Below, piece after piece: positions 3,878 to 30,873 of a stretch of DNA of 64,000 bases; within the stretch, counting starts at the first letter, position 1, and each line of letters begins with the position of its first letter. Source of the stretch: Thermoanaerobaculia bacterium (lineage in GTDB: Bacteria; Acidobacteriota; Thermoanaerobaculia; Multivoradales; SZUA-115); NCBI GenBank assembly GCA_044869955.1, contig JBIOYC010000074.1:9114-73113 (forward strand), given 5' to 3'. Under the pieces are notes generated by a model, which was not told where the DNA came from, made no database searches, and saw nothing but the letters and a program-made list of their open reading frames with translations. The translations under genes and the position numbers were made by a program.

Positions 3878-5008
3878 ATGTTTCGCTGGCGACGGATCGG
3901 TGCCTTGCTGGCCCTCTCGGCCGCGGGTGCCATGTCCCCTGGAGCCCAGCCCCCGGCTTCGCCGGTAGCGGAGGGGGAGGGTCGGCTGGCGGCGATCCAG
4001 GGTGAGATCCGCGGCCTCGAGGCCCAGCTCTCCAGCCTGGGCCAGACGGCCGAGTCGATCGAGGGAGAGATCGGCCGGTTGAGTCTCGCCACCCGCCTGC
4101 AGGAGCGGCGCGTGGCCGAGGCCGGCGCCGCGGTGTCTCTCGCCCAGGCCCGCGCGCAGGAGGCCGAGCAGCGGCTGGGCGAGCTCGAGGCCCGGCTCGA
4201 GGCCACCCGCGAGACCCTGCGCCGCAATTTGCGCAGCCTCTACCGGCTGGGCCGCTACGGCTACCTGCGCTTGCTGCTCTCGGCTCAGGCGGGCTCGGAC
4301 CCACTGGCCGCCGTGCGGTTGGCCCGCTATCTCGCGCGTCGCGATGGCGCGGAGATCGGGCGCTACGAGAGCCTGCGCTCCGGTGTCGTGGCCGAGCGGG
4401 ACCGCCTGCGCCGCGAGCGCGACGAGCGGGCGGCGTGGCGCAAGCTCGAGGAGGAGCGCCGCACGGCCCTGGCCAAGCTCCAGGGTGAGCAGGCCCGCCT
4501 CCTCGCCCGGGCCGAGCGCGAGCGTCTCACCCTGGCGTCGCGGGCGGTCGAGCTGGCCGCCGAGGCGGCCCGTCTCAGCCAGCTCTTCGCCGATCTCTCC
4601 GGCCAGGCGGCACCCCTCGCCGGCATGCCGATGCAGAGCTTCCGCGGCACCCTGGAGAGGCCGGCGGGCGGCGAGGTGGCCATCCGCTTCGGACCACGGC
4701 CGGATCCGCGCTACGGCACGCGGGTGCCCCACAACGGCATCGAGATCGCCACCCACCCCGGGTCCGCGGTGCGGGTGGTCTATCCCGGCAAGGTGCTCTA
4801 CGCCGCGCCCTTCCGCGGCCTCGGCCCGACGGTGATCGTGCTCCATCCGGGCAAGATGTTCTCGCTCTACGCCGGCCTCGAAGGGGTGCGCGTGAGCAAG
4901 GGTGATATGGTCCCGATCGGCCAGGCGCTCGGGGCGGCCACGGATCGCCTGTACTTCGAGATCCGCCTCGACAACCGTCCCGTCGATCCCCTCGGCTGGC
5001 TCCGTTAG
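3878..5008 (+). CDS. M23 peptidase-family protein with an N-terminal coiled coil (EnvC-like murein hydrolase activator)
   Basis: Signal peptide, long coiled coil, and a C-terminal LytM/M23 domain (GIEIATHPGSAVRVVYPGKV, LYFEIRLDNRPVDP). Confidence 0.8.
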   Translation: MFRWRRIGALLALSAAGAMSPGAQPPASPVAEGEGRLAAIQGEIRGLEAQLSSLGQTAESIEGEIGRLSLATRLQERRVAEAGAAVSLAQARAQEAEQRLGELEARLEATRETLRRNLRSLYRLGRYGYLRLLLSAQAGSDPLAAVRLARYLARRDGAEIGRYESLRSGVVAERDRLRRERDERAAWRKLEEERRTALAKLQGEQARLLARAERERLTLASRAVELAAEAARLSQLFADLSGQAAPLAGMPMQSFRGTLERPAGGEVAIRFGPRPDPRYGTRVPHNGIEIATHPGSAVRVVYPGKVLYAAPFRGLGPTVIVLHPGKMFSLYAGLEGVRVSKGDMVPIGQALGAATDRLYFEIRLDNRPVDPLGWLR

Positions 5009-5017
5009 AGGAAGACC

Positions 5018-6196
5018 ATGAATCGCAGCCGCACGGCGCTCCTCGTCGTCTCTCTGGCTCTGGTGGTGCCCATCCTCGCCGGCACCCTCCTCGCCGCCTC
5101 CTCCCGCGAAGACGACTCGACCGACTCTCTCTACAAGTACCTCGCCGTTTTCACCGAGACGCTCACTCGCGTCCGCGAGAACTACGTCGATCCGCCCGAC
5201 GTCGATCAGCTGCTGGTCGGTGCCCTCGACGGCGCCACCGACGCCCTCGATCCCTTCTCCCTCTACGTCCCTCCCGAAGCGGTCGACCGCTTCGTCGCCA
5301 GTCGCGGGGGGGGTCTGCCCGGCGGGCTCTTGCTGCTCAAGGAGCACGGCGTGATGTACGTCGCCGGGGCGCCGCCCGAGAGCGCCGCCGGCCGCGCCGG
5401 CCTGCGCATCGGCGACGTGGTCGCCGAGATCGGCGGCAAGTCGACGCGGGTGATGCCCCTGTGGCAGGCCCACCAGCTGCTCGCCGATGGCGGCACGCCG
5501 AGTGTCGATCTCAAGGTGATCCGCTACGGAGAGATGCGGTCGGTGTCGCTGGCCCTGGCCCGGTACGAGCCGCCGGCCCCGACCCTGCGCGAGGTCCGTG
5601 GCGTGCCGGTGCTGCGCGTCGCCGGCTTCGCGGGCGGCACGGCGACGGCGGTGGAGCGGGCCCTGGCCGAGCTCGCCCGCCAGGGGCAGGCGCGGCTGCT
5701 GGTCGACCTGCGCGGCACCCTTTCGGGCGACGCCGAGGTCGCCTACCGGGTGGCCGGGCTGTTCACCCGTGGGGAGCTCGGATCCCTGATCCGACGGGGT
5801 GAGAAGGCCGACACCTTCACCGGCAAGTCTGCCCCGGCCTGGCAGGGGAAGATCGGGCTGCTGGTCGACCGCGGCACCCTCGGCGCTGCCGAGGTGCTGG
5901 CGGCGGCGCTCAAGCAGAGGGCCTCGGCGAAGCTGATCGGCGAGCGAACCTTCGGCTACGCCGGCCACCAGGAGATGGTCGAGCTGTCGACCGGCGGCCG
6001 CTTGCTCTACACCGACTCGTTCTACACCGGGCCGGACGGCAAGGTGCTGCGCGGCAGCCAGATCCCCGACGTGAGGGTGGAGGACTTCTCCTTCGGCGAA
6101 CCGGAGGGCGAAGCCCCGTCGGACAAGGATCCGATCCTCGACCGCGGCATCGAGGTGCTGCTCGCCGAGGAGCCGGCCGCCGCCCAGGCCGCCTGA
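5018..6196 (+). CDS. ctpA: C-terminal processing peptidase (S41, Ctp/Prc) with PDZ domain
   Basis: N-terminal TM/signal, PDZ (GLRIGDVVAEIGG) and an S41 catalytic region (GERTFGYAG). The envC-ctp arrangement is conserved. Confidence 0.75.
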   Translation: MNRSRTALLVVSLALVVPILAGTLLAASSREDDSTDSLYKYLAVFTETLTRVRENYVDPPDVDQLLVGALDGATDALDPFSLYVPPEAVDRFVASRGGGLPGGLLLLKEHGVMYVAGAPPESAAGRAGLRIGDVVAEIGGKSTRVMPLWQAHQLLADGGTPSVDLKVIRYGEMRSVSLALARYEPPAPTLREVRGVPVLRVAGFAGGTATAVERALAELARQGQARLLVDLRGTLSGDAEVAYRVAGLFTRGELGSLIRRGEKADTFTGKSAPAWQGKIGLLVDRGTLGAAEVLAAALKQRASAKLIGERTFGYAGHQEMVELSTGGRLLYTDSFYTGPDGKVLRGSQIPDVRVEDFSFGEPEGEAPSDKDPILDRGIEVLLAEEPAAAQAA

Positions 6197-10468: not shown

Positions 10469-11269
10469 GTGCGGACCGGAGCTCGGCCGCTTAGAATCGA
10501 GTACGTGAGCACTCTGCGTTTGTTACCCGCGATCTTGACCTCCCTCGCTCTCCTCGGCGCCTGCGGCCAGGGGGGCTCCTCCTCGAGCTCCGCGGCTTCG
10601 AGCTCCCGGCACGCTCCAGGCGGCGTCTCGGGAGCCCTCGCCGCGGGGGAGGAAGCTGCCGCAGCGGCCAGCGCCGCGGCGCCGGCCCGCACCGGCGCGC
10701 CCGTGGTGCTCTTCCTCGGGGATAGCCTCACGGCCGGCTATGGGCTCTCCGGCGATGACGCCTACCCGGCGGTCGTCGCCCGCCGCCTCGACGAGGAGGG
10801 CATCGCCGCCAAGGTGGTGAACGCCGGCATCTCCGGCGACACCACGGCCGGCGGCCTCGCCCGGCTCGACTGGCTGCTGCGCCAGCAGCCGGCGGTCGTG
10901 GTGGTGGCCCTCGGGGCCAACGACGGGCTGCGCGCCGTCCCCCTCGAAGAAACCGAGCGCAACCTGCGCGAGATCGTCCGCAGGAGCCGCGAGACCGGCG
11001 CCCGTGTGGTGATCGCCGGCATGATGCTGCCGCCCAACTACGGCCCGGCCTACACTCTGGGCTTCCAGGCGATCTTCCCCAAGCTCGCCCGAGAGCTCGA
11101 GGTGGCCCTGATCCCCTTCCTGCTCGAGAAGGTAGCCGCCGAGCCCCAGCTCAACCTCGCCGACGGCATCCACCCCAACGTCGAGGGGCAGAAGCTCGTC
11201 GGCGAGACGGTGCTGCCGTTCGTGGTGCGCGAGCTAGGGAAGGGGTCCGATGTAGGTGGTGCGCCGTGA
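10469..11269 (+). CDS. tesA: SGNH/GDSL arylesterase-thioesterase (TesA-like) lipoprotein
   Basis: [14 protein letters not shown] and DGIHPN blocks of SGNH hydrolases. LLGAC lipobox. It is divergent from ybbA-ybbP as in E. coli. An alternative GTG start lies near 10505. Confidence 0.8.
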
Positions 11270-14215
11270 CACGAAGGCGTCGAAGACCAGGGCGCCGAAG
11301 GTCCCGGGATCGAGACCGTTGACCATTCCCATCAGGGCGGCCTCCACGCTCTGGGCGTCGTTGTCGATCGCCGAAAGGTGGGCGACCAGGCCGCCATCGA
11401 TCCACATCTTGGCGTAGCCGTCCGCAGCACCAGGGGCCGTGGCGGCCCGCCACTCGATCTCGACCGACGTGTCGTCTTCGAAGTTGTTCCAGCCGGAGCT
11501 GAGCCAGGTTCCGGCGTCGTCCATGGCGCGCAGCTGCAACCGGAACGATCCAGGGGTCGAGGCGGGCTCGATCGCCACCCGCGAGATCGCGGCGGCGGCG
11601 GAACGGACGATGAAGAGGTAGAACTGATCGCCGGCCGTCATCGACAGGTAGCCGGGGTCGAGGTAGAAGCGGGCACGATAGCGGGGCTCGGCGACCGGTG
11701 TGTTGTCGCGCACGAAGACGGTGTCGCCGCTTCCTCCGGCTCCTGTGTAGAGAGCCCAAGGTCCTGAAAGGTCGTTTTGGTCTTTCACCGACAGTTGGCC
11801 GGTGCCGGTGACCACGGTCATCGACCAAGCCGAGGTGTCGCCGGAGTCGAGCTCGTCCGAGAAGATGTGGTCGTTGCCACACGTGCCGTCGAGGGGATCG
11901 GTCCTCGGGTAGGCGAGGATCTCAGCGCCGTCTTGAGTGCCGTCGCAGTCGCTGTCGGCGGCCTGGGGATCGGTGCCGATCAGGGTCTCAAAGCCGTCAA
12001 CCACGGTGTCAGCGTCGGCATCGGAGTTGGCATAAACCCAGCCCAGGCAGGCGCGACTGCTGACGACTTCGGTGTAGCCGGCGTACTGGCTCGAGCCCAG
12101 CTCGGAGGCGGGGAAGACCGCCTGGTCGTCCACCGCGGGGTTGCGTCGGCGCAGCAGCGGCACTGTGCCTGCCGGCTGGCAGCTGGTCACCGAGCAGGAG
12201 GTGTCGGCGCCGCAGGTCGGGAAGACGTAGCCCTCGACGCCATCCAGGTAGTAGCCGGCGTTGAAGGCCGCGAGCACCTCCGCGTCGTCGATCGCATAGC
12301 GGTGGTCCCGATGGTTGGGGTTGCCGCCGAAGGGGGCGAACTTGCTCAGCCGGTAGAGCGGGAACAACGCCCCGCCCTCGGGGATCGGGTTCACCTCGGT
12401 CGAGAGCACCCAAGCCGAAGCCTTGGGCGTGCCGTTGGGGCAGGAGCCGGTGGTGCAGCCTGGGAAGCTGCCGTAGCCCGGCACGGCGGGGCCAGCCGAG
12501 GAGTAGGTCACACCGGTGGTGTCCTGGATGGCCGCCACGGCCATCTGGGGAACGGTGGTGTAGAAGAAGTCACCGGCCGTGGAGCTGTAGAGGCTGAAGA
12601 GGGGGGTGGCCCGGTTGGCGAGCACCTGACCGTCCACGGTTCCGAGCAGGGACTCGACAGAGGCATCGGCGTCCGGGATGCCGTAGCCCAGGAACTGGTC
12701 CCAGCTGGCGGCCTGGCTTGCGTGGGTGCGCAGGTCCAGCCGGACCTCTTCGGAGCTGAGCATCGGGTCGATCGAGCGCAGTATAGACGCCAGTCCGGTC
12801 ACGTGCGGCGCCGCCATCGAGGTGCCGGTGCAGCCACCGTAGCCGGTGGGGTTGCTCGGGTAGCCGGCGTCCTGACAGGCGGAGGCTGGGTTCCAGCGTT
12901 GCCCCGTGTAGAAGGTGGAGACCACGTCCTTGGCGGGAGCCGCCAGCTCCTGCTGGGCGCCGAAGTTCGACCCGACGCCGACGCCGTCGTCCCAGAACAC
13001 CCCGGGAAACTCGAGCCCGCCGACCGCGATCACCCGCGAGTCACGTGCCGGGAAGGCGACGCTCGAAGCGTTGTTGCCGGAGGCCGCAGCCATCAGCACC
13101 TGACGGTTGGCGCCGTGGGCTAGAGCGGCGCACACCGGCGCCCACGAGGCGGGCGGGCTGGCGCAGCTCGGATGGTTGCCTAAGCTACCGAAGCTCATGT
13201 TGATCACCTGAGTGCCGTGGTCGATCAGCCAGGTGATGCCCTCGGCGACATCGCTCAGATCCTGGCTCTGGCTGACGTCCGCGCCATACTGCTGGCAGAC
13301 AACGTTGGTGCAGGGAATCAGGTGGGAGATCCGGGCGAACATCAGGCTGGTCCGCCAGGCGGTGCCGGCGACTCCGATCCCGTTGTCGGTGGTAGCCGCC
13401 ACGATTCCCGAGACGTGGGAGCCATGGCCGGCGAAGTCGGTGACACCGAACTGCCCCCCTCCTCCCACGATCTCCTCGAGCTGGAGCTCGTCGACGCAGC
13501 GATCGGGCTGGTTGGGGTTGCCGACGTCGACCGAGAGCCGCCGGCGGAAGTTGCCGTGCTCGAAGAGGTTGGTGCTGCCGGAGCGGTGAAAGGCACGCAG
13601 GTCGGGATGGCCGGTCTCGAAAGTGACCCCGGGGCAGTCCGGAGACTTGGCCTCGATGCCGCTGTCGGGGATTCCGGCGTATCCGTGCCCCCGCGTGTGC
13701 TCCCAGGCCGCCGGGAGGTTCATTAGGTGGAGCCCCCACTGCGGCCCCTGGCTTCCCGGAGACTGGGGGAACAGGGGGTCGTTGGGATCGAGGAAGGGCT
13801 CCACAGAGCCGTCCTCGTCAGCGACGAGCACGTTCGAGTCGGCGGCCAGGGCGTTCTTGGCCGTTTCGAGGTCCGTCGTCGAGGCGTACTCGATGACCAC
13901 GTAGCGCTCGAGCAGGGCGCGCGGGTCCTCGGGATTGGCCAGGAGCCAGGCCAGAAAGTCGCCCTGCGCCCGCTCGGCGAGCAGGGGCTCGGCAGCGACC
14001 GGCGATCCGCTGCCAAGCGCGCCAGGCAGGGGAGTGCGGTTGTTGACGCCGTCGACGACTTGCTGTGGGCTCGGGGCTGCCGGCTCTGGAGCCAGCAGGA
14101 CGACCAGTTCGGGGACTCCGTCGGCCTCGGAGCCGAAGGTGGGTTGAACGAAGCTGCCGAAGGTCAGCAGCGAGGCCAGGGCGAAGCCGAGGCCTTGGGA
14201 TGGCTGGGCTGTCAC
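11234..14215 (-). CDS. Secreted subtilisin-like serine protease (S8) with C-terminal accessory domains
   Basis: Catalytic triad motifs IPDSGIE (Asp), GHGSHVSG (His) and GTSMAAPHVTG (Ser). A GTG start at 14215 is preferred: AAGGAGG sits 5 nt upstream and the encoded N-terminus is a signal peptide. Confidence 0.8.
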   Translation of the reverse strand: MTAQPSQGLGFALASLLTFGSFVQPTFGSEADGVPELVVLLAPEPAAPSPQQVVDGVNNRTPLPGALGSGSPVAAEPLLAERAQGDFLAWLLANPEDPRALLERYVVIEYASTTDLETAKNALAADSNVLVADEDGSVEPFLDPNDPLFPQSPGSQGPQWGLHLMNLPAAWEHTRGHGYAGIPDSGIEAKSPDCPGVTFETGHPDLRAFHRSGSTNLFEHGNFRRRLSVDVGNPNQPDRCVDELQLEEIVGGGGQFGVTDFAGHGSHVSGIVAATTDNGIGVAGTAWRTSLMFARISHLIPCTNVVCQQYGADVSQSQDLSDVAEGITWLIDHGTQVINMSFGSLGNHPSCASPPASWAPVCAALAHGANRQVLMAAASGNNASSVAFPARDSRVIAVGGLEFPGVFWDDGVGVGSNFGAQQELAAPAKDVVSTFYTGQRWNPASACQDAGYPSNPTGYGGCTGTSMAAPHVTGLASILRSIDPMLSSEEVRLDLRTHASQAASWDQFLGYGIPDADASVESLLGTVDGQVLANRATPLFSLYSSTAGDFFYTTVPQMAVAAIQDTTGVTYSSAGPAVPGYGSFPGCTTGSCPNGTPKASAWVLSTEVNPIPEGGALFPLYRLSKFAPFGGNPNHRDHRYAIDDAEVLAAFNAGYYLDGVEGYVFPTCGADTSCSVTSCQPAGTVPLLRRRNPAVDDQAVFPASELGSSQYAGYTEVVSSRACLGWVYANSDADADTVVDGFETLIGTDPQAADSDCDGTQDGAEILAYPRTDPLDGTCGNDHIFSDELDSGDTSAWSMTVVTGTGQLSVKDQNDLSGPWALYTGAGGSGDTVFVRDNTPVAEPRYRARFYLDPGYLSMTAGDQFYLFIVRSAAAAISRVAIEPASTPGSFRLQLRAMDDAGTWLSSGWNNFEDDTSVEIEWRAATAPGAADGYAKMWIDGGLVAHLSAIDNDAQSVEAALMGMVNGLDPGTFGALVFDAFVSRRTTYIGPLP

Positions 14216-14471
14216 GATTCCTCCTTCGCGGGCTACCGGGCCCGCTCTCATCCGGTATGGCGGGAGGTCTTCGCCAGAGCTCTCAACCGAAGCGTTCCCG
14301 TTGGGCAGCGACGGCACGATTGAGTTGGGGCGGATCGATAATCAGGAACTACATTCTGACGAGATAAGACATCCCCGGGTGTCACGGTTCACTCTTCGGC
14401 CTCACTCTCTTGTGCAGAGCAACCGCTCGAACAGCATTCGCGTCCCCCAGTGGAACGGAAAGGAGCCAGGC

Positions 14472-15032
14472 ATGAAGAAGTTCCTCGCTGGCGGCTTTGC
14501 GCTCGCGGCCCTCCTGGCCGCTCCGGCGCTGGCCTCGACCTTCGCCGCCATGGACCAGAAGGCTCTGGTCCGCGCGGCCGACGTCGTGATCGAAGGCGAA
14601 GTCCTCCAGGTGAGCTCGTTCTGGACCCCGGGCGGAGAGGTCATCATCTCCGAGGCCTTGATCCTGGTCCGCGAGAACGTGGTGGGTGGCGCCGACGGCG
14701 TGATCGTCGTGCGCACCTTCGGCGGCACCGTCAACGGCTACACCGTGGAGGCGCACGGCTTTCCCACCTTCGAGAAGGGTGAGCGCCAGCTGCTTTTCCT
14801 CGAGGCGGAGGAGGACGGGGTCCGGCGGGTTGCCGGCTACCAGCAGGGCCAGTTCCGGATCGTTCCCGACCTGGAAGGCAGGCCGGTCGCGGTATCGGCC
14901 CTCGAGGCCGATACTCACCTGGTCAAACCGAATGGTCGCGTCGTCACCCTGCCGCGGGAGCTGCCTCTCGAGCAGCTGAAGGGGCTCGTCCGGAACGAGG
15001 CACGGCGCCAGGGCCGCGCGCTCGAGAACTAG
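14472..15032 (+). CDS. Small secreted hypothetical protein (P1), partner of the downstream metzincin
   Basis: SD AAGGAG, signal peptide MKKFLAGGFALAALLAAPALA. High GC3 is consistent with coding. It lies 22 nt upstream of the metzincin gene. Confidence 0.6.
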   Translation: MKKFLAGGFALAALLAAPALASTFAAMDQKALVRAADVVIEGEVLQVSSFWTPGGEVIISEALILVRENVVGGADGVIVVRTFGGTVNGYTVEAHGFPTFEKGERQLLFLEAEEDGVRRVAGYQQGQFRIVPDLEGRPVAVSALEADTHLVKPNGRVVTLPRELPLEQLKGLVRNEARRQGRALEN

Positions 15033-15054
15033 GCCAAGGAAAAGGAACCGAACC

Positions 15055-15681
15055 ATGAAGAAGACTCGCCTCTTCACCCTCGCCGCCTTCGCCCTGGTCT
15101 GCCTCCTGGTGGCCGGCAGCCTCTTCGCCTACGTCCTTCTCTCGCCGCGCCGCACCTGGGACGCGGACCCCAACGTCATCGTCGACAGCCGCGGCAACAC
15201 CTCGGTCACCGACGGGGCCGGCGGTCGCAACTACGTGCGCAGCGCGATCGTCTCGACGGCGGCCTGGAACGGTGCGGGCTCGGGCACCGTGGTCAACGCC
15301 ACGATCGGCTCGGTCTCGGCCTTCTCGTTGGGCGACGGCACGCCGATGCTCAACCTGCGTGACCCCACCGGGGCCTGCAACGGCTCTTGCCTGGCGGCCA
15401 CCTTCACCGGCTATTACAGCCGGCGTTCGAACGGCACCTACCGCATCTACGACGCCGACATCGTCACCAACCCGTCGCTCAACTTCGCCTCCGCGGGCGA
15501 GGCCTGCTCCGGCAGCGAGTACCGCATCGAGGGAGTGATGGTGCACGAGGTGGGGCACCTGCTGGGCCTGGGTCACACCAGCGTCTCCGGCGCCACCATG
15601 TTCCCTTCCGTCTCCGCCTGCAACAACAACCCGGCCTCGACCGAGGCCGACGACGAAGCAGGTATCAACGACCTGTATTGA
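15055..15681 (+). CDS. Small secreted zinc metalloprotease, metzincin (HEVGHLLGLGH plus ATMFP Met-turn; M10/M7-like)
   Basis: The HExxHxxGxxH zinc motif and Met-turn are read directly. Signal/TM N-terminus. SD AAGGAA. Confidence 0.75.
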   Translation: MKKTRLFTLAAFALVCLLVAGSLFAYVLLSPRRTWDADPNVIVDSRGNTSVTDGAGGRNYVRSAIVSTAAWNGAGSGTVVNATIGSVSAFSLGDGTPMLNLRDPTGACNGSCLAATFTGYYSRRSNGTYRIYDADIVTNPSLNFASAGEACSGSEYRIEGVMVHEVGHLLGLGHTSVSGATMFPSVSACNNNPASTEADDEAGINDLY

Positions 15682-15786
15682 TCGATCCTGCAGACTGATC
15701 GAACCCCGCGCCGTGGAGCGATCCACGGCGCGGTTTCCTTCAGCTTGGTGTGGGCTGGTCTCGCGGCATGGCCAGAACGATCGCGC

Positions 15787-16083
15787 TCAAGGCAAGTGCC
15801 GTTCAAGGTCCAGCTTGCCGTGGTAGATGCCGAGGACCTCGATGGACTGCTCGGGGCCGATGAGGTAAGCGATGCGGTAGTGGCCGTAGAGGAGGGTGCG
15901 GATCGGCCCTCCGGGGGTGTCGCGGTAGCGATGGCCCAGCTCGGGGAATCGCCTCAGGCTCTGGATTTTGTCGTAGATCCCGCGAACGGTGCGGCGAGCG
16001 GCGGTGGGGTTGTCCAGGGCGATGAAGTCGTGGATCTCCCGCAGCCAGCTCTCAGCCTCGGGTGTCCACCTTATTCTCCCCAT
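15787..16083 (-). CDS. parE: Type II toxin, ParE/RelE family
   Basis: 98 aa. The C-terminal RIAYLIGPEQSIEVLGIYHG region is typical of ParE/RelE. It overlaps the upstream antitoxin by 13 bp. Confidence 0.7.
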   Translation of the reverse strand: MGRIRWTPEAESWLREIHDFIALDNPTAARRTVRGIYDKIQSLRRFPELGHRYRDTPGGPIRTLLYGHYRIAYLIGPEQSIEVLGIYHGKLDLERHLP

Positions 16084-16268
16084 GCCGCGATCCGCCGCTC
16101 CATCTCTTCGTCGCTGATCAGGCGCCCGGCTCTCACGTCCTCGAGCCCGCGTTCGACCATCCGGGCGAAGGCCAGCTCGTGGAGGAGCTCGTCGAAGCTG
16201 CTGTCCTCGGGTTGATCGTCGAGGATCTCGCGGATTCGCTCCTTGGCGGTCAGCGTGGCAGTGCTCAT
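16071..16268 (-). CDS. Putative addiction-module antitoxin (65 aa, TIGR02574-like)
   Basis: A small acidic protein immediately upstream of, and overlapping, the ParE-like toxin. It is the C-terminal part of a 149-aa track ORF; the N-terminal part is rejected as low-complexity. Confidence 0.55.
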   Translation of the reverse strand: MSTATLTAKERIREILDDQPEDSSFDELLHELAFARMVERGLEDVRAGRLISDEEMERRIAAWGE

Positions 16269-16290: not shown

Positions 16291-17076
16291 CTACCGCCCC
16301 TTCGCCTCCTCCCACAGCCGGTCCATCTCTTCGAGGGTGGCGTCGTTGACGCTCCGGCCGTCGGCGGCGAGGGCAGTTTCGATGTAGGCGAAGCGCTGGC
16401 GGAACTTGCGGTTGGTGGCGGCGAGCGCGGCTTCGGGGTCGACCTCGAGCTTCCTCGCCAGGTTGACGGCGGTGAACAGGAGGTCGCCGATCTCCTCGGC
16501 CACGGCCTCGCGCCCCCCATCCTCGGTGACCGCCTGGCGCAGCTCGGCGACTTCCTCGTCGACCTTGACCAGCACGTCCCCCGGCTCGGGCCAGTCGAAG
16601 CCGACGCCGGCGGCCTTCTGGGTCATGCGATAGGCGGCGGTGAGCGCGGGCAGGGAGCGGGGCACCCCGGCGAGGAGCGAACGCGCGCCGCCCTCCTGGG
16701 CCACCTTGCGCCGCTCCCAGGCCTCGCGCACGGCCGCGGCGTCGGCCAGCTTCTCCTCCCCGAAGACGTGGGGGTGGCGCTCGATCATCTTGCGCAGGAC
16801 GTGAGCGATCGAGTCGCCCAGGTGGAGGGTGCCGGCCTCCTCACCCAGCCGTCCGACGAAGGCGATCTGGAAGAGCAGGTCTCCCAGCTCCTCGGTGAGG
16901 CCGGCCCAATCGCCGTCGTCGATCGCCGCTGCGGCCTCGTGCGCCTCCTCGAGCAGATAGGCGCGGAGGTCGGACAGGCCCTGGCGGCGGTCCCAGGGGC
17001 AGCCGTCCGGTGCGCGCAGCCGGGCGACCAGCTCGAGCAAGGGGGCGAGGTCGGTCGGCGGCCCCGGCCGGCTCAT
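16291..17076 (-). CDS. mazG: Nucleoside triphosphate pyrophosphohydrolase MazG
   Basis: Two tandem MazG domains (EEAHEAAAAID, EEVAELRQAV, EEIGDLLF). Confidence 0.85.
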   Translation of the reverse strand: MSRPGPPTDLAPLLELVARLRAPDGCPWDRRQGLSDLRAYLLEEAHEAAAAIDDGDWAGLTEELGDLLFQIAFVGRLGEEAGTLHLGDSIAHVLRKMIERHPHVFGEEKLADAAAVREAWERRKVAQEGGARSLLAGVPRSLPALTAAYRMTQKAAGVGFDWPEPGDVLVKVDEEVAELRQAVTEDGGREAVAEEIGDLLFTAVNLARKLEVDPEAALAATNRKFRQRFAYIETALAADGRSVNDATLEEMDRLWEEAKGR

Positions 17077-26054: not shown

Positions 26055-27851
26055 ATGAGAGCCACCATCCTGGTCCGTGCCTCGCTGGCCCTGACGACCT
26101 TCTTGATCCCGACCCTGGCTCTTGCCCAGGAGGCGCCCTTGCGGGTGGGACCCCCTGCCGCCGAGAGCGTCGCGATTCCCCCACCCCTGCGCCTCGCGGA
26201 ACGTGCCGACGCCGTCCCCCTCGCCTCCCTGGCGCCGGCGATCGAGCGCGAGTCGGCCCGTCTCGGCGCCCTCGCCCTCCACAACCGCCAGCGTCAGCTG
26301 CCGGTGCAGAACGGCTTCGCACGTGACGTGCCGCGCCTCGAGCGCCTGCGCATCCAGCCCGGAAGCGCCCAGCTCTCGCAGCGGGCCGCGGGCGGCCTGC
26401 TGGAGCGCACCGCCGAGGGCCGGTTGGTGTGGGGGACCGAGGTGCGGGTCGCGGACGCCTGGCGCCTACGGCTCCATCTCTCCGGGGTGGCGTTGCCACC
26501 CGGCTCGCGACTGTGGGTCTACGGTGAGAGGGAGACGGTGGGCCCCTTCGGGCTCGAGCTCAAGGGACCCGACGGCGACCTTTGGACGCCCTCGGTGGGC
26601 GGGAACGCGATCCGCCTGGAGGTCGAGATGCCGGCCTCGGGTGGAGAAGCCGGCTTCCTGGTCGATCGGGTGCTCGAGCTCTTCGAGCTGGACACCCAGG
26701 GCGCCGCGGTGACCGCCCAGTCCACCGCGGGCGATCCGCCCTGTCTGGTCGACGTCCAGTGCGTCAACAGCTCGGTCTTCGACGTCGTCGACCTCGCCCA
26801 GGCGGCCATCGCCCACATCCAGTTCATCGACGGCGGCCTGGGCTTCATCTGCTCGGGCGGGCTGCTGAATGACCAGGGCTCCACGGGGACGCCGTGGTTC
26901 CTCACCGCCAACCACTGCTTCGACAACCAGTCCGCGGCCTCGACCCTCGAGGCCTACTTCGACTACTTCTCTGCCACTTGTGGCGGGGCGGCGCCGAGCC
27001 TCGGCTCCCTGCCGCGGGCCACCGGCTCGACCCTGGTGGCCACCGGCTCGCTGGATCTCGGGATGTCGGACTTCACCTTCCTGCAGCTCTCCAGTGCGCC
27101 CGGCAACCGGGTGTTCCTGGGTTGGAACGCCAATACCTCGGCTACCGCCAACGGCACCACTCTGCACCGCATCTCCCATCCCCTGGGCCTCAAGCAGCAC
27201 TATTCGCAGAACCACGTCGACACCGCCGCCATCACCTGCGCGGGAGCGCCCCGACCGACCTTCCTCTACTCGACCTACAACGCCGGCGTGGGCAACCAGG
27301 GCGGCACCTTCGGCGGCAGCTCGGGCTCGCCGACCATCCGTTCCGGCGGCCAGGTGGTCGGGCAGCTGACCGGCGGCTGCGGCCCCAACCCCAGCGATGG
27401 CTGCGACTACGACAACGCGGACGTGGATGGCGCCTTCGCGTCGACCTTTCCCTTCATCGCGGATTCACTGAACCCTCCGGACGGGGCCTGTGTCGCCGGG
27501 CCGACCACCATGTGCCTGGTCGGCGGCCGGTTCAAGGTGGAGGTCGACTACGACACTGGGTCACCGCAGAACCTCTCCGGTCCTGGCTCGGTGGTGCCCC
27601 TCGGCTCGGACAACTCCGGCATGTTCTACTTCTTCAACGCGGACAACTGGGAGATGCTGATCAAGGTCCTCGACGCCTGCGCTCTGCCCTCCAATCCGCG
27701 TTACTGGGTGTTCTTCGCGGCCACGACGAACGTCGGTTTCACGGTCACGGTCACGGACACGGACAACGGCAGCTTCAAGACCTACACCAACCCGATCGGC
27801 ACGGCCGCAGCGCCGGTGCAGGACACCAACTCCTTCGCCACCTGCCCGTAG
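26055..27851 (+). CDS. Secreted trypsin-fold serine protease (S1; lysyl/glutamyl-endopeptidase-like) with a C-terminal beta-rich domain
   Basis: Signal peptide. TANHC (His), GGSSGSP (Ser). SD AAGGAGA. Confidence 0.75.
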   Translation: MRATILVRASLALTTFLIPTLALAQEAPLRVGPPAAESVAIPPPLRLAERADAVPLASLAPAIERESARLGALALHNRQRQLPVQNGFARDVPRLERLRIQPGSAQLSQRAAGGLLERTAEGRLVWGTEVRVADAWRLRLHLSGVALPPGSRLWVYGERETVGPFGLELKGPDGDLWTPSVGGNAIRLEVEMPASGGEAGFLVDRVLELFELDTQGAAVTAQSTAGDPPCLVDVQCVNSSVFDVVDLAQAAIAHIQFIDGGLGFICSGGLLNDQGSTGTPWFLTANHCFDNQSAASTLEAYFDYFSATCGGAAPSLGSLPRATGSTLVATGSLDLGMSDFTFLQLSSAPGNRVFLGWNANTSATANGTTLHRISHPLGLKQHYSQNHVDTAAITCAGAPRPTFLYSTYNAGVGNQGGTFGGSSGSPTIRSGGQVVGQLTGGCGPNPSDGCDYDNADVDGAFASTFPFIADSLNPPDGACVAGPTTMCLVGGRFKVEVDYDTGSPQNLSGPGSVVPLGSDNSGMFYFFNADNWEMLIKVLDACALPSNPRYWVFFAATTNVGFTVTVTDTDNGSFKTYTNPIGTAAAPVQDTNSFATCP

Positions 27852-28659: not shown

Positions 28660-28791
28660 GGCGGGAGGATGGCCGATCGGTGGGCCGGAAGCAAGACTGC
28701 GGGACCTCGTCTCGCAAATTGGCGACTTCGCCGTCTTGACTACAAGGTTCGAGAGAACTTAAAATCGCGCATCACTAGAGATGGTATACCC

Positions 28792-29559
28792 ATGAACGAG
28801 AGACACTGCTTGCGGCCCATGAGTTGGATCCTGGTCGGATTTCTGACGGGCAGCGCTGTGCTCGCCGAGGTTCCCGACCGAATCGATTCCCCTCTCAAAT
28901 CACCCTCCAACGTCCTTTGGCTTTCAGAGGAGCTTGCCTTCAGTCCTTCCGGTGAGCTTCGCAGCGAGCTGTTCTCGAGTTCCGAGCTTTCCATGCTCCG
29001 CAACGAGGTTGAGGGCCTTCGTCGCGCCAGAGCACGCGCAGTGGACGGCAGTGCCGAGACCGCGTGTCCTCTGATCCAAGTGGGCGATCGCGACTTTGCG
29101 GCCGATCGGCCCACCCTGGCGCAAGTGTTCGAGGAAGCTAAGCTCGTGGTCCTGGGGGAGCTAGCCGCGGTCGAGCAAGGTGTGTTCTACGGCCAGTTCG
29201 TGACCCTCTACGAGCTCCGGATCGAGACCGTCGCCAAGGCCCCGGCCAGTTGGAGCGCGCCCGAAACTCTCCTGTTCGTGGGTGTCCGCTTCGACCGAGT
29301 GGTCGATGGTACGCGCGTCTGTCTGGCCGGATCGCGCTTCCCTCATGAGCCGACACTAGGTCGTCGGGTCCTGATTCTCGCTCGAGCGATCCCGGTCGAG
29401 AGCCCGGTCGTTTTGAACCCGCTCGAGGACGAGCTCTACTTCGAGATCGAGGGCGGAGTCGCCTCCTTGCCATGGGCCAAGGCGACGGGCCTGCCGGCTG
29501 GGGTGTCCTGGGCCGAAGTAGAGAGGCAGCTGTTCGCTGTACAGGACAAGCGGCCATGA
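28792..29559 (+). CDS. Secreted hypothetical protein (P2), partner of the downstream snapalysin-like metzincin
   Basis: Signal peptide. Its stop overlaps the next start (ATGA at 29556-29559). It shows faint similarity to P1 (AKLVVLGELAAV against ADVVIEGEVLQV). Confidence 0.55.
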   Translation: MNERHCLRPMSWILVGFLTGSAVLAEVPDRIDSPLKSPSNVLWLSEELAFSPSGELRSELFSSSELSMLRNEVEGLRRARARAVDGSAETACPLIQVGDRDFAADRPTLAQVFEEAKLVVLGELAAVEQGVFYGQFVTLYELRIETVAKAPASWSAPETLLFVGVRFDRVVDGTRVCLAGSRFPHEPTLGRRVLILARAIPVESPVVLNPLEDELYFEIEGGVASLPWAKATGLPAGVSWAEVERQLFAVQDKRP

Positions 29560-30203
29560 AGACTACCCGTCCCGGCGGGCTGGGCCGGTCGAGGTGGGCT
29601 GCTCTGTTGCTTTGCTTCTTGGCAGCAGCGACCGGGACGGATGCCAGAGGAGACAGCTGTGCCAACAGCTATTCGGAAATCTCGGCCAGTTCTGCCATCG
29701 ATACCATCCGACTCAACGGAATCTACGGCGACCGAGCCCCCTGCATCAGCTGTCTGTCGACCGCGGCGAGCGCGTGGTCCAGTGCCTGTGGGAGCAGCAG
29801 TCTCCCCAACCTGACCACCAGCGGGGCTGCCGACATGGTCGTCCCGGTCTATTTCCTGCTTGGTCAGAATCCAGGAACGGTCCCGGGCTGCAGCGGCACC
29901 AAGTGCGCGTGTACGCGGCTGACTTTCTCCGGGGGTCAGATTGCCACCGCACAGATCTACATCTGGGAAGCCACCGGTGGTGGGCAGAACTGCACCGCGC
30001 AACAGACGGCAGTTCTCACTCACGAGATCGGGCATCTTCTCGGTCTGGAGGACCCCTCGCCGGGGACCTGCACGACGAGGATCATGGGCAACGTCACTGG
30101 TGCCATCGCTGCCGCCGACTGCAACGAAGTGGATGGCAACTTCTACATGAGCTGGGAGGGAGGAGTGCCGAATGACCACGACTGCGTCTGGCGCGAATAC
30201 TGA
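29556..30203 (+). CDS. Small secreted Cys-rich zinc metalloprotease, snapalysin-like metzincin (HEIGHLLGLED plus RIMGN Met-turn)
   Basis: HExxHxxGxxD with Asp as the third ligand, as in the M7 snapalysin family. Signal peptide. Eleven Cys. Confidence 0.65.
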   Translation: MKTTRPGGLGRSRWAALLLCFLAAATGTDARGDSCANSYSEISASSAIDTIRLNGIYGDRAPCISCLSTAASAWSSACGSSSLPNLTTSGAADMVVPVYFLLGQNPGTVPGCSGTKCACTRLTFSGGQIATAQIYIWEATGGGQNCTAQQTAVLTHEIGHLLGLEDPSPGTCTTRIMGNVTGAIAAADCNEVDGNFYMSWEGGVPNDHDCVWREY

Positions 30204-30873
30204 GCAACTCCTGCGCCGAGCCCGCACCCGCGTCAGCTGGTGCTTGCTCCTGGTGGTCCCCGGCTTCGTCGTCCCCGCGATGGCCGATCACGCCTGCACC
30301 AGCCCTTTGATTCTCAATCTGGACGATAACGGGCGGATCGACACGACGGGCGAAGAGCACTGGGTCGACTTCGACATCGATGGCGATGGCGAGCTCGATC
30401 GCATCGCTTGGACCAGCTTCGAAGCCGAAGATGCTCTCCTTTGGCTGGACCTCAACGACAACCGCCTGGCGGATCACGGCGGCGAGCTCTTCGGCGACTC
30501 CACCCGCCTTCCATCGGGTGAGTTGGCCCGCAATGGCTTTGAGGCGTTGGCGGTTTACGATCGGCCGGAGCAGGGCGGCGATGGGGATGGGCGGATCACC
30601 GCCCTCGACCGGATCTGGCCCCGCCTGCGCCTGTGGGCCGACTTCAACCACGATGCCGTCTCGCAGCCGGAAGAGATCCACCGTCTCACGCCTTCGGCAG
30701 TTCTAGCCATCGACCTAGCCTACGAGAAGGCGCAGGTGCTCGACGGTCACGGCAACCTCCACGCCCTGCGGGGGACCTTCGTGAGACGCGTAAGAGAGGC
30801 AGGCTTCGAGAGGATCCAGCAGGAGCTGGTCGAGGACGTTTCCTTCCTCTCGGAGGAGTTGCACCAACCTTGA
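30172..30873 (+). CDS. Secreted hypothetical protein with EF-hand/dockerin-like DxDxDG calcium-binding motifs
   Basis: DFDIDGDGELD, DLNDNRLAD, GGDGDGRITALD. Signal peptide. The start is uncertain; the ATG at 30172 overlaps the upstream gene by 32 bp. Confidence 0.5.
   Translation: MTTTASGANTEQLLRRARTRVSWCLLLVVPGFVVPAMADHACTSPLILNLDDNGRIDTTGEEHWVDFDIDGDGELDRIAWTSFEAEDALLWLDLNDNRLADHGGELFGDSTRLPSGELARNGFEALAVYDRPEQGGDGDGRITALDRIWPRLRLWADFNHDAVSQPEEIHRLTPSAVLAIDLAYEKAQVLDGHGNLHALRGTFVRRVREAGFERIQQELVEDVSFLSEELHQP

Follow-up and report, generated by a model that had tools for sequence, protein, structure and literature searches.

What is the role of a small secreted protein whose gene lies directly before that of a secreted metzincin? 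The question is raised by a 64,000-nucleotide stretch of DNA from a Thermoanaerobaculia bacterium, referred to here as the window, in which two such arrangements are found. Cassette 1 contains the genes for P1 and the metzincin M1, and cassette 2 those for P2 and the metzincin M2. According to the initial annotation, each of P1 and P2 would be a conserved partner of the protease encoded next to it, serving as an inhibitor, a chaperone or a pro-domain in trans. As described below, a common predicted fold and conserved adjacency support the partnership, and for P1 they point to the first of these roles.

P1, a secreted protein of 186 residues with a predicted NTR/TIMP fold, is encoded on the forward strand at positions 14472-15032. 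Its first 21 residues (14472-14534) form a signal peptide that opens with MKK, continues into a hydrophobic core and finishes at an A-L-A/S signal-peptidase site (the slash marks the cleavage point), and the mature chain is predicted to begin at position 14535 with Ser 22, Thr 23 and Phe 24 (14535-14543). The gene for M1, which follows on the same strand at 15055-15681, specifies a secreted protein of 208 residues with a matrixin-like (M10) catalytic domain and no pro-domain. The zinc motif HEVGHLLGLGH (residues 164-174) is encoded at 15544-15576, and Met 182 of the Met-turn, ATMFP, at 15598-15600. Between the two genes is a spacer of 22 nucleotides (15033-15054) that carries a Shine-Dalgarno-like AAGGA motif. 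The cassette had been described as translationally linked, but the two genes are not coupled by an overlap, and the gap has a ribosome-binding site of its own. No terminator-like site was found on the forward strand of the P1-M1 gap, and an intrinsic-terminator-like hairpin, with a 12-bp stem containing 10 G-C pairs and a T-rich tail, lies 3' of M1 at 15706-15733. This distribution of signals supports co-transcription of P1 and M1 in a unit that the hairpin would close. The coordinates, lengths, zinc motifs and Met-turn given in the initial annotation for P1, M1, P2 and M2 were all reproduced, and each of these genes, together with X3 of cassette 2, is a called gene with an identical sequence in a public collection.

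On the Pfam Peptidase_M10 model (PF00413), for which the cut-off is 24 bits, M1 scores 47 (E = 3.4e-12), the alignment covering profile positions 103-158 only. Its closest sequence matches in the PDB are MMP-12, MMP-8 and karilysin. The matrixin features present include the HExxHxxGxxH motif, the Met-turn and a C-terminal DDxxGIxxLY helix, all of which are invariant across the M1 family, as are His 164, Glu 165, His 168, His 174 and Met 182 individually. A pro-peptide with a cysteine switch (PRCGxPD), of the type found in animal MMP zymogens, is absent in more than 70 homologs. Directly after the signal peptide in these proteins lies a highly conserved YVLLSPRRTWD stretch, the Tyr 26 of which is invariant. 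Since this stretch, the start of the catalytic domain, abuts the signal peptide, M1 is considered to lack a pro-domain.

Grouped at 90% identity, the P1 family forms 227 clusters, most of them belonging to Thermoanaerobaculia (Acidobacteriota) sampled in metagenomes of soil and sediment; it has neither a Pfam nor an NCBIfam model. The mature N-terminus is strongly conserved. Thr 23 and Phe 24 are invariant, position 22 is serine in ~97% of the homologs and glycine in the rest, and the [S/G]-T-F start always comes directly after an AxA-type signal-peptidase site. There is no cysteine in the mature region of any of the 182 sequences counted and hence no disulfide. Seven of the 19 invariant columns fall within residues 82-100. 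Judged by the predicted strand order, these residues probably correspond to the C-D connector, which in TIMPs, as in the TIMP-1/MMP-3 complex, is the second contact ridge.

Both P1 and P2 are predicted with high confidence to adopt the same NTR/TIMP OB-fold. In P1, the spacing from residue 1 of the mature protein to the first long strand, Ala 15-Asp 16-Val 17-Val 18-Ile 19, is the same as that in TIMP-2 (Cys 1 to Ala 15-Asp 16-Val 17-Val 18-Ile 19), the sequence of which was checked against PDB entry 1br9. The A-D-V-V-I string common to the two proteins was set aside as evidence of homology; an hhalign comparison of the P1 profile with N-TIMP-2 gave an E-value of 0.79. A Pfam search returned no match for P1 or P2 at E ≤ 0.1, and the P1 profile retrieved no TIMP from the PDB sequences at E ≤ 10.

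An M1 homolog lies downstream on the same strand for 76 of 77 P1 homologs, drawn from 67 genome loci, with gaps in these 76 pairs of -4 to 37 nucleotides (median 22) and GGAG-like motifs visible in most of the spacers. The remaining homolog, in locus L067, is distant (34% identity; N-terminal site AFA/T-T-M), and a metzincin with the motif HEAGHYIGMCH begins 16 nucleotides downstream of it. An indexed search placed only four clusters in this branch, which does not widen the known distribution of the family. In the reverse direction, a search with M1 patterns yielded 90 M1 homologs, of which 79 have P1 upstream; the other 11 all lie within 400 nucleotides of the edge of their contig, and wherever the contig extends far enough P1 is present. 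The check on genomic context thus bears out the adjacency to metzincins in 77 of 77 P1-selected cases and in all 79 testable M1-selected cases. Additionally, the P1-M1 pair duplicates as one unit, and the distances within the two families co-diverge (Mantel r = 0.68, reached in 0 of 999 permutations). This last correlation is discounted as evidence of interaction because linked genes share a phylogeny.

The window holds several secreted proteases, and cassette 1 had been placed immediately after one of them, an S8 subtilase of 1027 residues. The subtilase gene (11234-14317), however, is on the reverse strand and divergent from P1, and the 67 P1-related loci yielded no S8 homolog. For both reasons it was rejected as part of the module and is regarded as context only. 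A trypsin-like (S1) secreted protease of 598 residues is encoded on the forward strand at 26055-27851, ~1 kb 5' of cassette 2; its homologs are occasional neighbors of P1-M1, present in 5 of the 67 P1 loci and giving four matches among 80 M1-selected loci.

Cassette 2 was said to repeat the same two-gene architecture at 28792-30203. The P2-M2 pair is indeed there, with the start of M2 overlapping the stop of P2 (ATGA), but the cassette is in fact a three-gene module, all on the forward strand. A sigma-70-like promoter match (TTGACT, 18 nucleotides, TAAAAT; a match to consensus only) is located at 28736-28765, just 5' of the P2 start. P2 (28792-29559; 255 residues, secreted, predicted NTR/TIMP fold) has an N-terminal extension of ~65 residues following its A-V-L-A/E signal-peptidase site, an invariant Cys 92 and a near-invariant Cys 177. 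M2 (29556-30203) is a mini-metzincin of 215 residues with the zinc motif HEIGHLLGLED and an RIMG Met-turn. Its matches to snapalysin are sub-threshold, at 21.5 bits for NCBIfam NF033628 (cut-off 300) and 17.1 bits for Pfam M7 (cut-off 25), and those to M43 and M10 likewise fall below threshold. The top PDB sequence matches are the snapalysin entries 1c7k and 4hx3, both with an E-value of 0.05. Among M2 homologs the third zinc-ligand position varies between Asp, His and Asn. Given that the likeness between M1 and M2 is confined to the segment around the zinc motif (11 of 25 residues), the two enzymes are treated as members of different metzincin families.

The third gene, X3 (30172-30873), overlaps the end of M2 by 32 nucleotides and encodes a secreted protein of 233 residues. 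Residues 45-205 are homologous to the self-processing module (SPM) of FrpC (PDB 6sjw, E = 1.4e-23). X3 homologs are conserved downstream of M2 homologs and in locus L159 are fused to one. The scissile bond in the FrpC module is an Asp-Pro at its N-terminal edge; at the presumed equivalent position, X3 and its homologs have Ser-Pro. An exhaustive HMMER search revealed 137 P2 relatives, and a k-mer-indexed search returned P2 alone. Across 12 retrievals of P2-family genomic context, six of the 10 loci sampled (L073, L074, L076, L158, L159 and L160) have an M2 homolog following the P2 homolog.

The initial annotation had noted faint collinear patterns shared by P1 and P2. Direct sequence comparison reveals no relationship, with a BLASTP E-value of 5 and a score of -5 bits for P2 against the P1-family HMM; profile-profile and fold comparisons alone connect the two proteins. 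When the family alignments were compared with hhalign, residues 26-115 of P1 aligned with residues 106-202 of P2 (score 37.5, E = 6.8e-5). Reversed controls scored 15.4-15.5, and 40 column shuffles gave at most 17.8. The faint similarity is therefore real, although visible to profiles only, and the alignment matches up the very blocks that had been named. The comparison of folds, a check set beforehand, gave the same answer: as noted above, both proteins are predicted to share the NTR/TIMP OB-fold. Neither of the two findings named in advance as refuting the partnership, unrelated folds or homologs never adjacent to metzincins, was thus obtained.

Taken together, these results lead us to consider it probable, if by no wide measure, that P1 and M1 constitute a two-gene operon in which P1 is a TIMP/NTR-fold cognate inhibitor of the matrixin-like M1, acting via its free N-terminus. 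That P1 is M1's own inhibitor is the most likely assignment because the linkage was seen without exception in the related loci examined, and inhibition is favored over the other proposed roles because a known family of metalloprotease inhibitors has the predicted fold and the free N-terminus is conserved. In TIMPs, the zinc is chelated through the α-amino and carbonyl groups of the first residue, whereas the second is directed at the S1' pocket. By the mechanism that we envision, P1 would be translated first from the common mRNA and exported by Sec, after which signal peptidase would expose its [S/G]-T-F N-terminus. M1 would be produced as a signal peptide and a bare catalytic domain and, having neither pro-peptide nor cysteine switch, would therefore be active once folded outside of the cytoplasm. 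The free N-terminus of P1 and its conserved connector (residues 81-100) may bind M1 by wedging into the active site cleft in a TIMP-like manner, and thereby inhibit it. Because position 1 is serine rather than cysteine and there are no disulfides, some other feature would have to keep the wedge rigid. The outcome would be that M1 is held latent, or the envelope of the producer protected, until the complex is released or P1 removed. P2-M2 may represent a second, distantly related version of this arrangement, in which P2 is lengthened by an additional segment at its N-terminus and the third gene supplies a homolog of a Ca-dependent self-processing module.

NTR domains are not always inhibitors. 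PCOLCE, which bears one, enhances a metzincin, and the NtA domain of agrin binds laminin. P1 might accordingly be an adaptor or enhancer that would bind a polymer or surface and present this to M1, much as PCOLCE enhances BMP-1, or a substrate from which cleavage by M1 would release an active fragment. For the latter there is a precedent, the sole bacterial one to have been studied, that counts against inhibition by P1, inasmuch as the TIMP-like Tim of Listeria is a substrate of its metzincin: it is a lipoprotein that Mtz cleaves ~50 residues from the N-terminus, and inhibition has not been demonstrated (PMC8235301). P1, however, has no removable N-terminal extension, its NTR core beginning at the signal-peptidase site, and its conservation peaks at the N-terminus and the adjacent connector, as would be expected of a TIMP-type wedge. 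We thus regard a substrate or adaptor role as unlikely.

Slightly less probable again is that P1 is a folding or secretion helper of M1, a pro-domain in trans or intermolecular chaperone that would inhibit M1, if at all, only briefly and as a side effect. Folding depends on the pro-peptide in many secreted proteases and M1 has none, the P1 gene comes first, and the linkage is strict whichever gene is taken as the starting point. On the other hand, no chaperone role is known for the NTR/TIMP fold, and matrixin catalytic domains fold in vitro without their pro-domains. Moreover, an invariant free N-terminus positioned exactly at the signal-peptidase site befits a ligand to the active site zinc rather than a folding scaffold. 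That P1 guards the cell against foreign metzincins, such as those of competitors, and is tied to M1 only through an island of secreted proteases is very improbable: PotA does inhibit host MMP-12 as well (PMC9890683) and other secreted proteases do lie in the window, but the S8 and S1 genes are not conserved neighbors, and the exceptionless reciprocal linkage, operon-like spacing, duplication as a unit and co-divergence of P1 and M1 argue for a cognate relationship.

TIMPs are treated as an animal protein family. Two studies of TIMP evolution, in the portions accessible, consider only eukaryotes or metazoans (PMC4860685, PMC10755359), and a 2025 paper on how matrixin genes have passed horizontally between microbes and animals never mentions TIMP (PMC12587646). 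The locus described here reveals a large, unannotated bacterial family with a predicted TIMP/NTR fold, paired in every locus examined with a matrixin-like enzyme devoid of a pro-domain. Should P1 inhibit M1, two families without a Pfam or NCBIfam model would become annotatable. Should it do so via its free N-terminus, it would provide a disulfide-free, minimal TIMP scaffold of use in MMP-inhibitor engineering, a second independent bacterial case beside Listeria Tim, and a tangible way to ask if MMP-TIMP antagonism arose before animals did or by convergence. A broader proposition, that NTR/TIMP-fold partners are a general, ancient and unrecognized bacterial means of controlling small, secreted, pro-domain-less metzincins, that the TIMP-MMP pair is not an animal invention, and that the P2-M2-SPM module adds a Ca-triggered self-processing ("clip-and-link") step to protease deployment, is at present doubtful. 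If true, there would be at least three very divergent families, namely the P1 type with its Ser-Thr-Phe N-terminus, the P2 type with a cysteine pair and an extension, and the Firmicutes Tim proteins, and the TIMP-MMP pair could be older than animals or have been passed between early animals and bacteria along with matrixin genes.

How, then, does the module compare with known systems? Animal TIMPs (MEROPS I35), which are tight 1:1 inhibitors of matrixins (M10A) or adamalysins, have an NTR-type OB-fold N-terminal domain, as is also predicted for P1, and the N-terminus of P1 is free, conserved and in the matching register. Unlike TIMPs, P1 is a bacterial protein whose gene shares an operon with that of its predicted target, shows no detectable similarity in sequence to the TIMP family (PF00965), and has no disulfides compared with six. 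Whereas Cys 1 of TIMPs belongs to a disulfide-tied Cys-X-Cys, the corresponding residue in P1 is Ser or Gly. P2 does possess a conserved Cys 92/Cys 177 pair, but Cys 92 is located ~65 residues beyond the signal peptide.

The statement in the initial annotation that such a paired module is not a described family holds only in part, for Mtz-Tim of Listeria (PMC8235301) and potempin A-karilysin (PMC9890683) have been published. In Listeria monocytogenes, a secreted metzincin is accompanied by an adjacent, co-transcribed protein that is TIMP-like by structure prediction (PMC8235301). As with P1-M1, the pairs are consistently linked across many genomes; Firmicutes relatives of Tim (LMRG_00714) outside Listeria have SPI signal peptides, as does P1 (PMC8235301). 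The gene order differs, however, with mtz preceding tim, and Listeria-type pairs reside on phage or other mobile elements (PMC8235301), which is not evident for P1-M1. P1 and M1 had no match when a set of 50,697 phage genomes was searched by tblastn, PHROG yielded no significant family for P1, M1, P2 or M2 (only a match at 0.052 for M2), and the BFVD viral fold search produced nothing convincing (TM ≤ 0.35, none at E ≤ 0.001). A phage origin is thus unsupported.

With respect to gene order, the KLIKK system of Tannerella forsythia is closer, the inhibitor gene for potempin A (PotA) lying directly upstream of, and being co-transcribed with, that for the MMP-like metzincin karilysin (PMC9890683). 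PotA is a five-stranded OB-fold β-barrel that protects the envelope of the producer (PMC9890683). Potempins have a lipobox cysteine and are anchored in the outer membrane, whereas P1 has an AxA/S type I site without cysteine and P2 an A-V-L-A/E site. M2 shares its HExxHxxGxxD motif and small size with snapalysin (M7). The known snapalysin inhibitors of Streptomyces, SMPI and sermetstatin, have unrelated folds and are not NTR proteins.

Finally, the serralysin inhibitors AprI/Inh (MEROPS I38) are periplasmic proteins of Gram-negative bacteria whose genes belong to the operon of the protease, and the donor in their bond to the zinc is the amine of the N-terminal Ser 1. Their target, unlike M1, belongs to the serralysins (M10B), carries an RTX domain and is secreted by a T1SS. 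The crystal structure is reported to display inhibition by a zinc-NH2 coordinative bond, and AprI/Inh is stated to engage its metzincin much as TIMPs do (PMC8235301). By analogy, AprI/Inh is the closest mechanistic counterpart of the Ser 1 wedge proposed here for P1.

Cassette 1 consists of P1 (14472-15032, + strand), which encodes a secreted protein of 186 aa, and M1 (15055-15681, +), which encodes a secreted, matrixin-like mini-metzincin of 208 aa. The spacer between them (22 nt) contains an AAGGA ribosome-binding motif. No terminator-like site is present between P1 and M1 on the + strand, and a strong terminator-like hairpin with a 12-bp stem, 10 G-C pairs, and a T-rich tail lies at 15706-15733. 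The evidence supports co-transcription of the two genes, which do not overlap, in place of the translational link proposed in the initial annotation; M1 has its own ribosome-binding motif. The large S8 subtilase described there as preceding P1 is encoded on the opposite strand (11234-14317, -) as a divergent neighbor outside of the module. The reading frames, coordinates, and zinc motifs of P1/M1 and of P2/M2, the corresponding pair in cassette 2, were confirmed. All four are called genes, with identical sequences but no name, on an 84-kb contig in a public collection. Directly downstream of the hairpin, on the - strand, are a ParE-family toxin gene (15787-16083; Pfam PF05016, E 6e-16), a candidate antitoxin reading frame of 65 aa (16071-16268) that overlaps the start of the toxin gene by 13 nt and has no Pfam match, and a MazG pyrophosphohydrolase gene (16291-17076).

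P1 has no match in Pfam, NCBIfam, or PHROG. Its homologs form 227 clusters, nearly all from metagenomes or from Thermoanaerobaculia or other Acidobacteriota MAGs, and none of these clusters has a Pfam domain on record. The conserved partnership suggested initially is borne out by genomic context. When one genome per species was scanned (67 loci, 77 P1 homologs), 76 of the P1 homologs had a same-strand M1 homolog behind them at a distance of -4 to 37 nt (median 22). The 77th (L067, from an unclassified MAG) has 34% identity, and the gene beginning 16 nt behind it encodes a metzincin of 420 aa with the motif HEAGHYIGMCH. In the reverse test, metagenome contigs were searched with M1 patterns, which yielded 90 M1 homologs in 80 loci. 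A P1 homolog lies immediately upstream of 79 of these, and the remaining 11 are all less than 400 nt from a contig end; no M1 homolog among the 90 lacks P1 where there is sufficient room upstream. At least 10 loci carry duplications of the whole pair.

P1 has diverged ∼1.5 times as much as M1 (mean pairwise distance 0.50 versus 0.33). The distances of the two are correlated (Mantel r 0.68), but little weight is placed on this value because it is expected for linked genes. In three tandem P1-M1-P1-M1 arrangements (L035, L045, L048) the pattern is reversed, with the P1 copies 3-14% and the M1 copies 16-19% divergent. Gene conversion acting on P1, or diversifying selection acting on M1, could explain this. 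Pairs also occur on two contigs binned as Woeseiaceae (Gammaproteobacteria; L038 and L051), with identities to the window of 42-43% for P1 and 57-58% for M1. Either horizontal transfer out of the Acidobacteriota or misbinning would account for them.

Structural modeling predicts a TIMP/NTR fold for P1, under which the meteorin NTR and hookworm ES-2 are also named. The residues following the predicted signal peptidase site are Ser-Thr-Phe, with Gly-Thr-Phe in three of the 191 unique sequences; the Thr and Phe are invariant. In the distant L067 relative the site reads AFA followed by T-T-M. Mature P1 (S1-T2-F3 ... A15-D16-V17-V18-I19) and TIMP-2 (C1-S2-C3 ... A15-D16-V17-V18-I19, checked against PDB entry 1br9) have the same spacing between residue 1 and the first long strand. 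Of the 19 invariant columns in the P1 alignment, seven fall within residues 82-100, and by the predicted strand order this segment would form the connector after strand C, topologically the C-D loop. The C-D loop and the N-terminal segment provide most of the TIMP-MMP contacts, as in the TIMP-1/MMP-3 structure. The N-terminus of P1 probably lies close in space to this connector. Membership of P1 in the TIMP/NTR group fails at the sequence level, and the Cys-X-Cys/disulfide hallmark of TIMPs is absent, there being no cysteine in the mature region of any of the 182 sequences counted. Only the predicted fold is shared, and P1 is therefore referred to as "TIMP-like" or "NTR-fold" rather than as a TIMP.

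M1 scores 47 bits against the Pfam matrixin model (PF00413), for which the cut-off is 24, and by sequence its closest relatives of solved structure are MMP-12, MMP-8, and karilysin. His 164, Glu 165, His 168, His 174, and Met 182 of the Met-turn are invariant among its homologs. In 70+ homologs the highly conserved YVLLSPRRTWD comes straight after the AxA-type site that closes the signal peptide, and thus M1 is a bare catalytic domain; neither a pro-peptide nor a cysteine switch is present in these sequences. Three length classes of about 205, 250, and 320 aa were observed (loci with such variation include L027, L036, L039, L046, L050, L053, L055, L057, L060, and L065). The longer classes have C-terminal extensions, and a P1 homolog still precedes every one.

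In cassette 2 (28792-30203), P2 (28792-29559, +; 255 aa) has a sigma-70-like match just upstream, and the start of M2 (+, 215 aa) overlaps its end as ATGA. This two-gene architecture had been noted initially; a third gene, X3 (30172-30873, +), follows M2 and encodes a secreted, stand-alone homolog (233 aa) of the Neisseria FrpC calcium-dependent self-processing module (PDB entry 6sjw, E 1.4e-23). Ten P2-family loci had enough downstream sequence to judge. The proposed recurrence of P2-M2 holds in six of them (L073, L074, L076, L158, L159, and L160), where M2 and X3 homologs directly follow P2; one (L077) retains a truncated M2 remnant, and three have neither homolog. In L159 a single 391-aa protein (1104-2279) fuses the M2 homolog to the self-processing module, which ties X3 functionally to M2 and makes cassette 2 a three-gene module. 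Separate X3 homologs lie at 4384-5046 (L073), 4500-5150 (L076), 4484-5137 (L158), and 4411-5190 (L160). At what we take to be the position of the FrpC scissile Asp-Pro bond, X3 and its homologs have Ser-Pro after a conserved Cys. The occurrence of such a module outside of RTX toxins, linked to a mini-metzincin, seems unusual. A 598-aa S1 trypsin-like protease is encoded ∼1 kb upstream of P2-M2-X3 (26055-27851, +). S1 homologs lie within 1-2 kb of P1-M1 in five of the 67 genome loci (L002, L009, L016, L026, and L066), and the 80 metagenome loci selected with M1 contain four S1 matches. Secreted proteases thus seem to be associated loosely but repeatedly.

M2 contains HEIGHLLGLED and an RIMG Met-turn and resembles M1 only in the zinc-site segment. 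It passes no family threshold, its scores for snapalysin, M43, and M10 all being too low. The third zinc ligand position varies across the family, with the Met-turn (I/V-M) retained: HExxHxxGxxD in M2, L158 (3801-4448), and the L159 fusion, HExxHxxGxxH in L074 (1459-2112), and HExxHxxGxxN in L076 (3821-4477) and L160 (about 3900-4410). Note that the M2 homologs encoded in L073 and L160 are absent from public gene calls.

An indexed search for relatives of P2 returned nothing beyond P2 itself; an exhaustive HMMER search gave 137 full-length sequences of about 250 aa. Models predict the same fold for P2 as for P1. The faint collinear blocks noted initially were recovered by profile-profile alignment of the families (score 37.5, E 6.8e-5, probability 63%), which spans residues 26-115 of P1 and 106-202 of P2 and pairs ALVRAADVVIEGEVLQV with LAQVFEEAKLVVLGELAAV and GERQLLFL with GRRVLIL. 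Since this score is far above the controls (∼15 for the reversed profile and at most 17.8 for 40 column shuffles), P1 and P2 are most plausibly very distantly related proteins that share a fold. In the P2-family alignment the mature N-terminal E-[VI]-P-D is conserved, Cys 92 is invariant, and Cys 177 is nearly so. The N-terminal motif, E-[VI]-P-D-x-I, is followed by a near-invariant Trp and lies ∼65 residues before the NTR core (alignment A3). Cys 92 is 26 residues ahead of the first core strand, as compared to 16 for Cys 1 in TIMPs. The extension could act as a plug within the molecule, could be a pro-segment that M2 cleaves off, or could contribute a second element for binding.

The reading with the most support makes P1, and P2 by extension, either a cognate protein inhibitor of the metzincin encoded downstream or a partner that keeps it latent, in line with the inhibitor role first suggested. 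It is supported by the predicted inhibitor fold of P1, the invariant N-terminus that signal peptidase would set free, the absence of a pro-domain in the protease, and the gene order. P1 would be made first from the operon and its free N-terminus would insert into M1, which would otherwise be active on export. We infer all three of binding, inhibition, and N-terminal insertion. Alternatively, the protease may process P1 as its substrate or as an effector, for which Listeria Tim provides a precedent (PMC8235301); given the P2 extension, processing is likelier in cassette 2 than in cassette 1. P1 may also act as an adaptor or enhancer of the NTR type, in the manner of PCOLCE, a protein that bears an NTR domain. 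Finally, it may be a folding helper, namely a pro-domain supplied in trans.

With P1 regarded as an inhibitor of M1, the mechanism would most closely resemble those of TIMP-MMP and AprI/Inh-serralysin, in which an N-terminal amine is placed on the zinc. Genetically, the nearest parallel is potempin A-karilysin: the gene for an OB-fold inhibitor that guards the outer membrane of the producer lies immediately upstream of that for an MMP-like enzyme (PMC9890683). A bacterial metzincin paired with a TIMP-like protein has been described in one publication, for Listeria and other Firmicutes, whose authors state that they could trace no previous report of TIMP-like proteins in bacteria (PMC8235301). 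Given these two publications, the initial view that no such paired module had been described holds only in part. The Listeria pair differs from P1-M1 in that the gene order is opposite, the partner is a lipoprotein, and the genes are on mobile elements; inhibition was not shown there. Bacterial TIMPs are never discussed in one account of TIMP evolution (PMC4860685; PMC10755359 is another paper on the subject), and TIMP is never mentioned in a 2025 study of matrixin horizontal transfer (PMC12587646). P1 represents a large, unannotated, and testable family with an inferred function, and it is relevant to how TIMP-MMP regulation arose. The P1 and P2 families would join a known class, in which a secreted bacterial metzincin is co-transcribed with its cognate protein inhibitor. 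They are distinguished by a disulfide-free TIMP/NTR scaffold, a Ser-Thr-Phe N-terminus, a matrixin-like partner enzyme, and a linkage that, for P1-M1, held at every locus examined.
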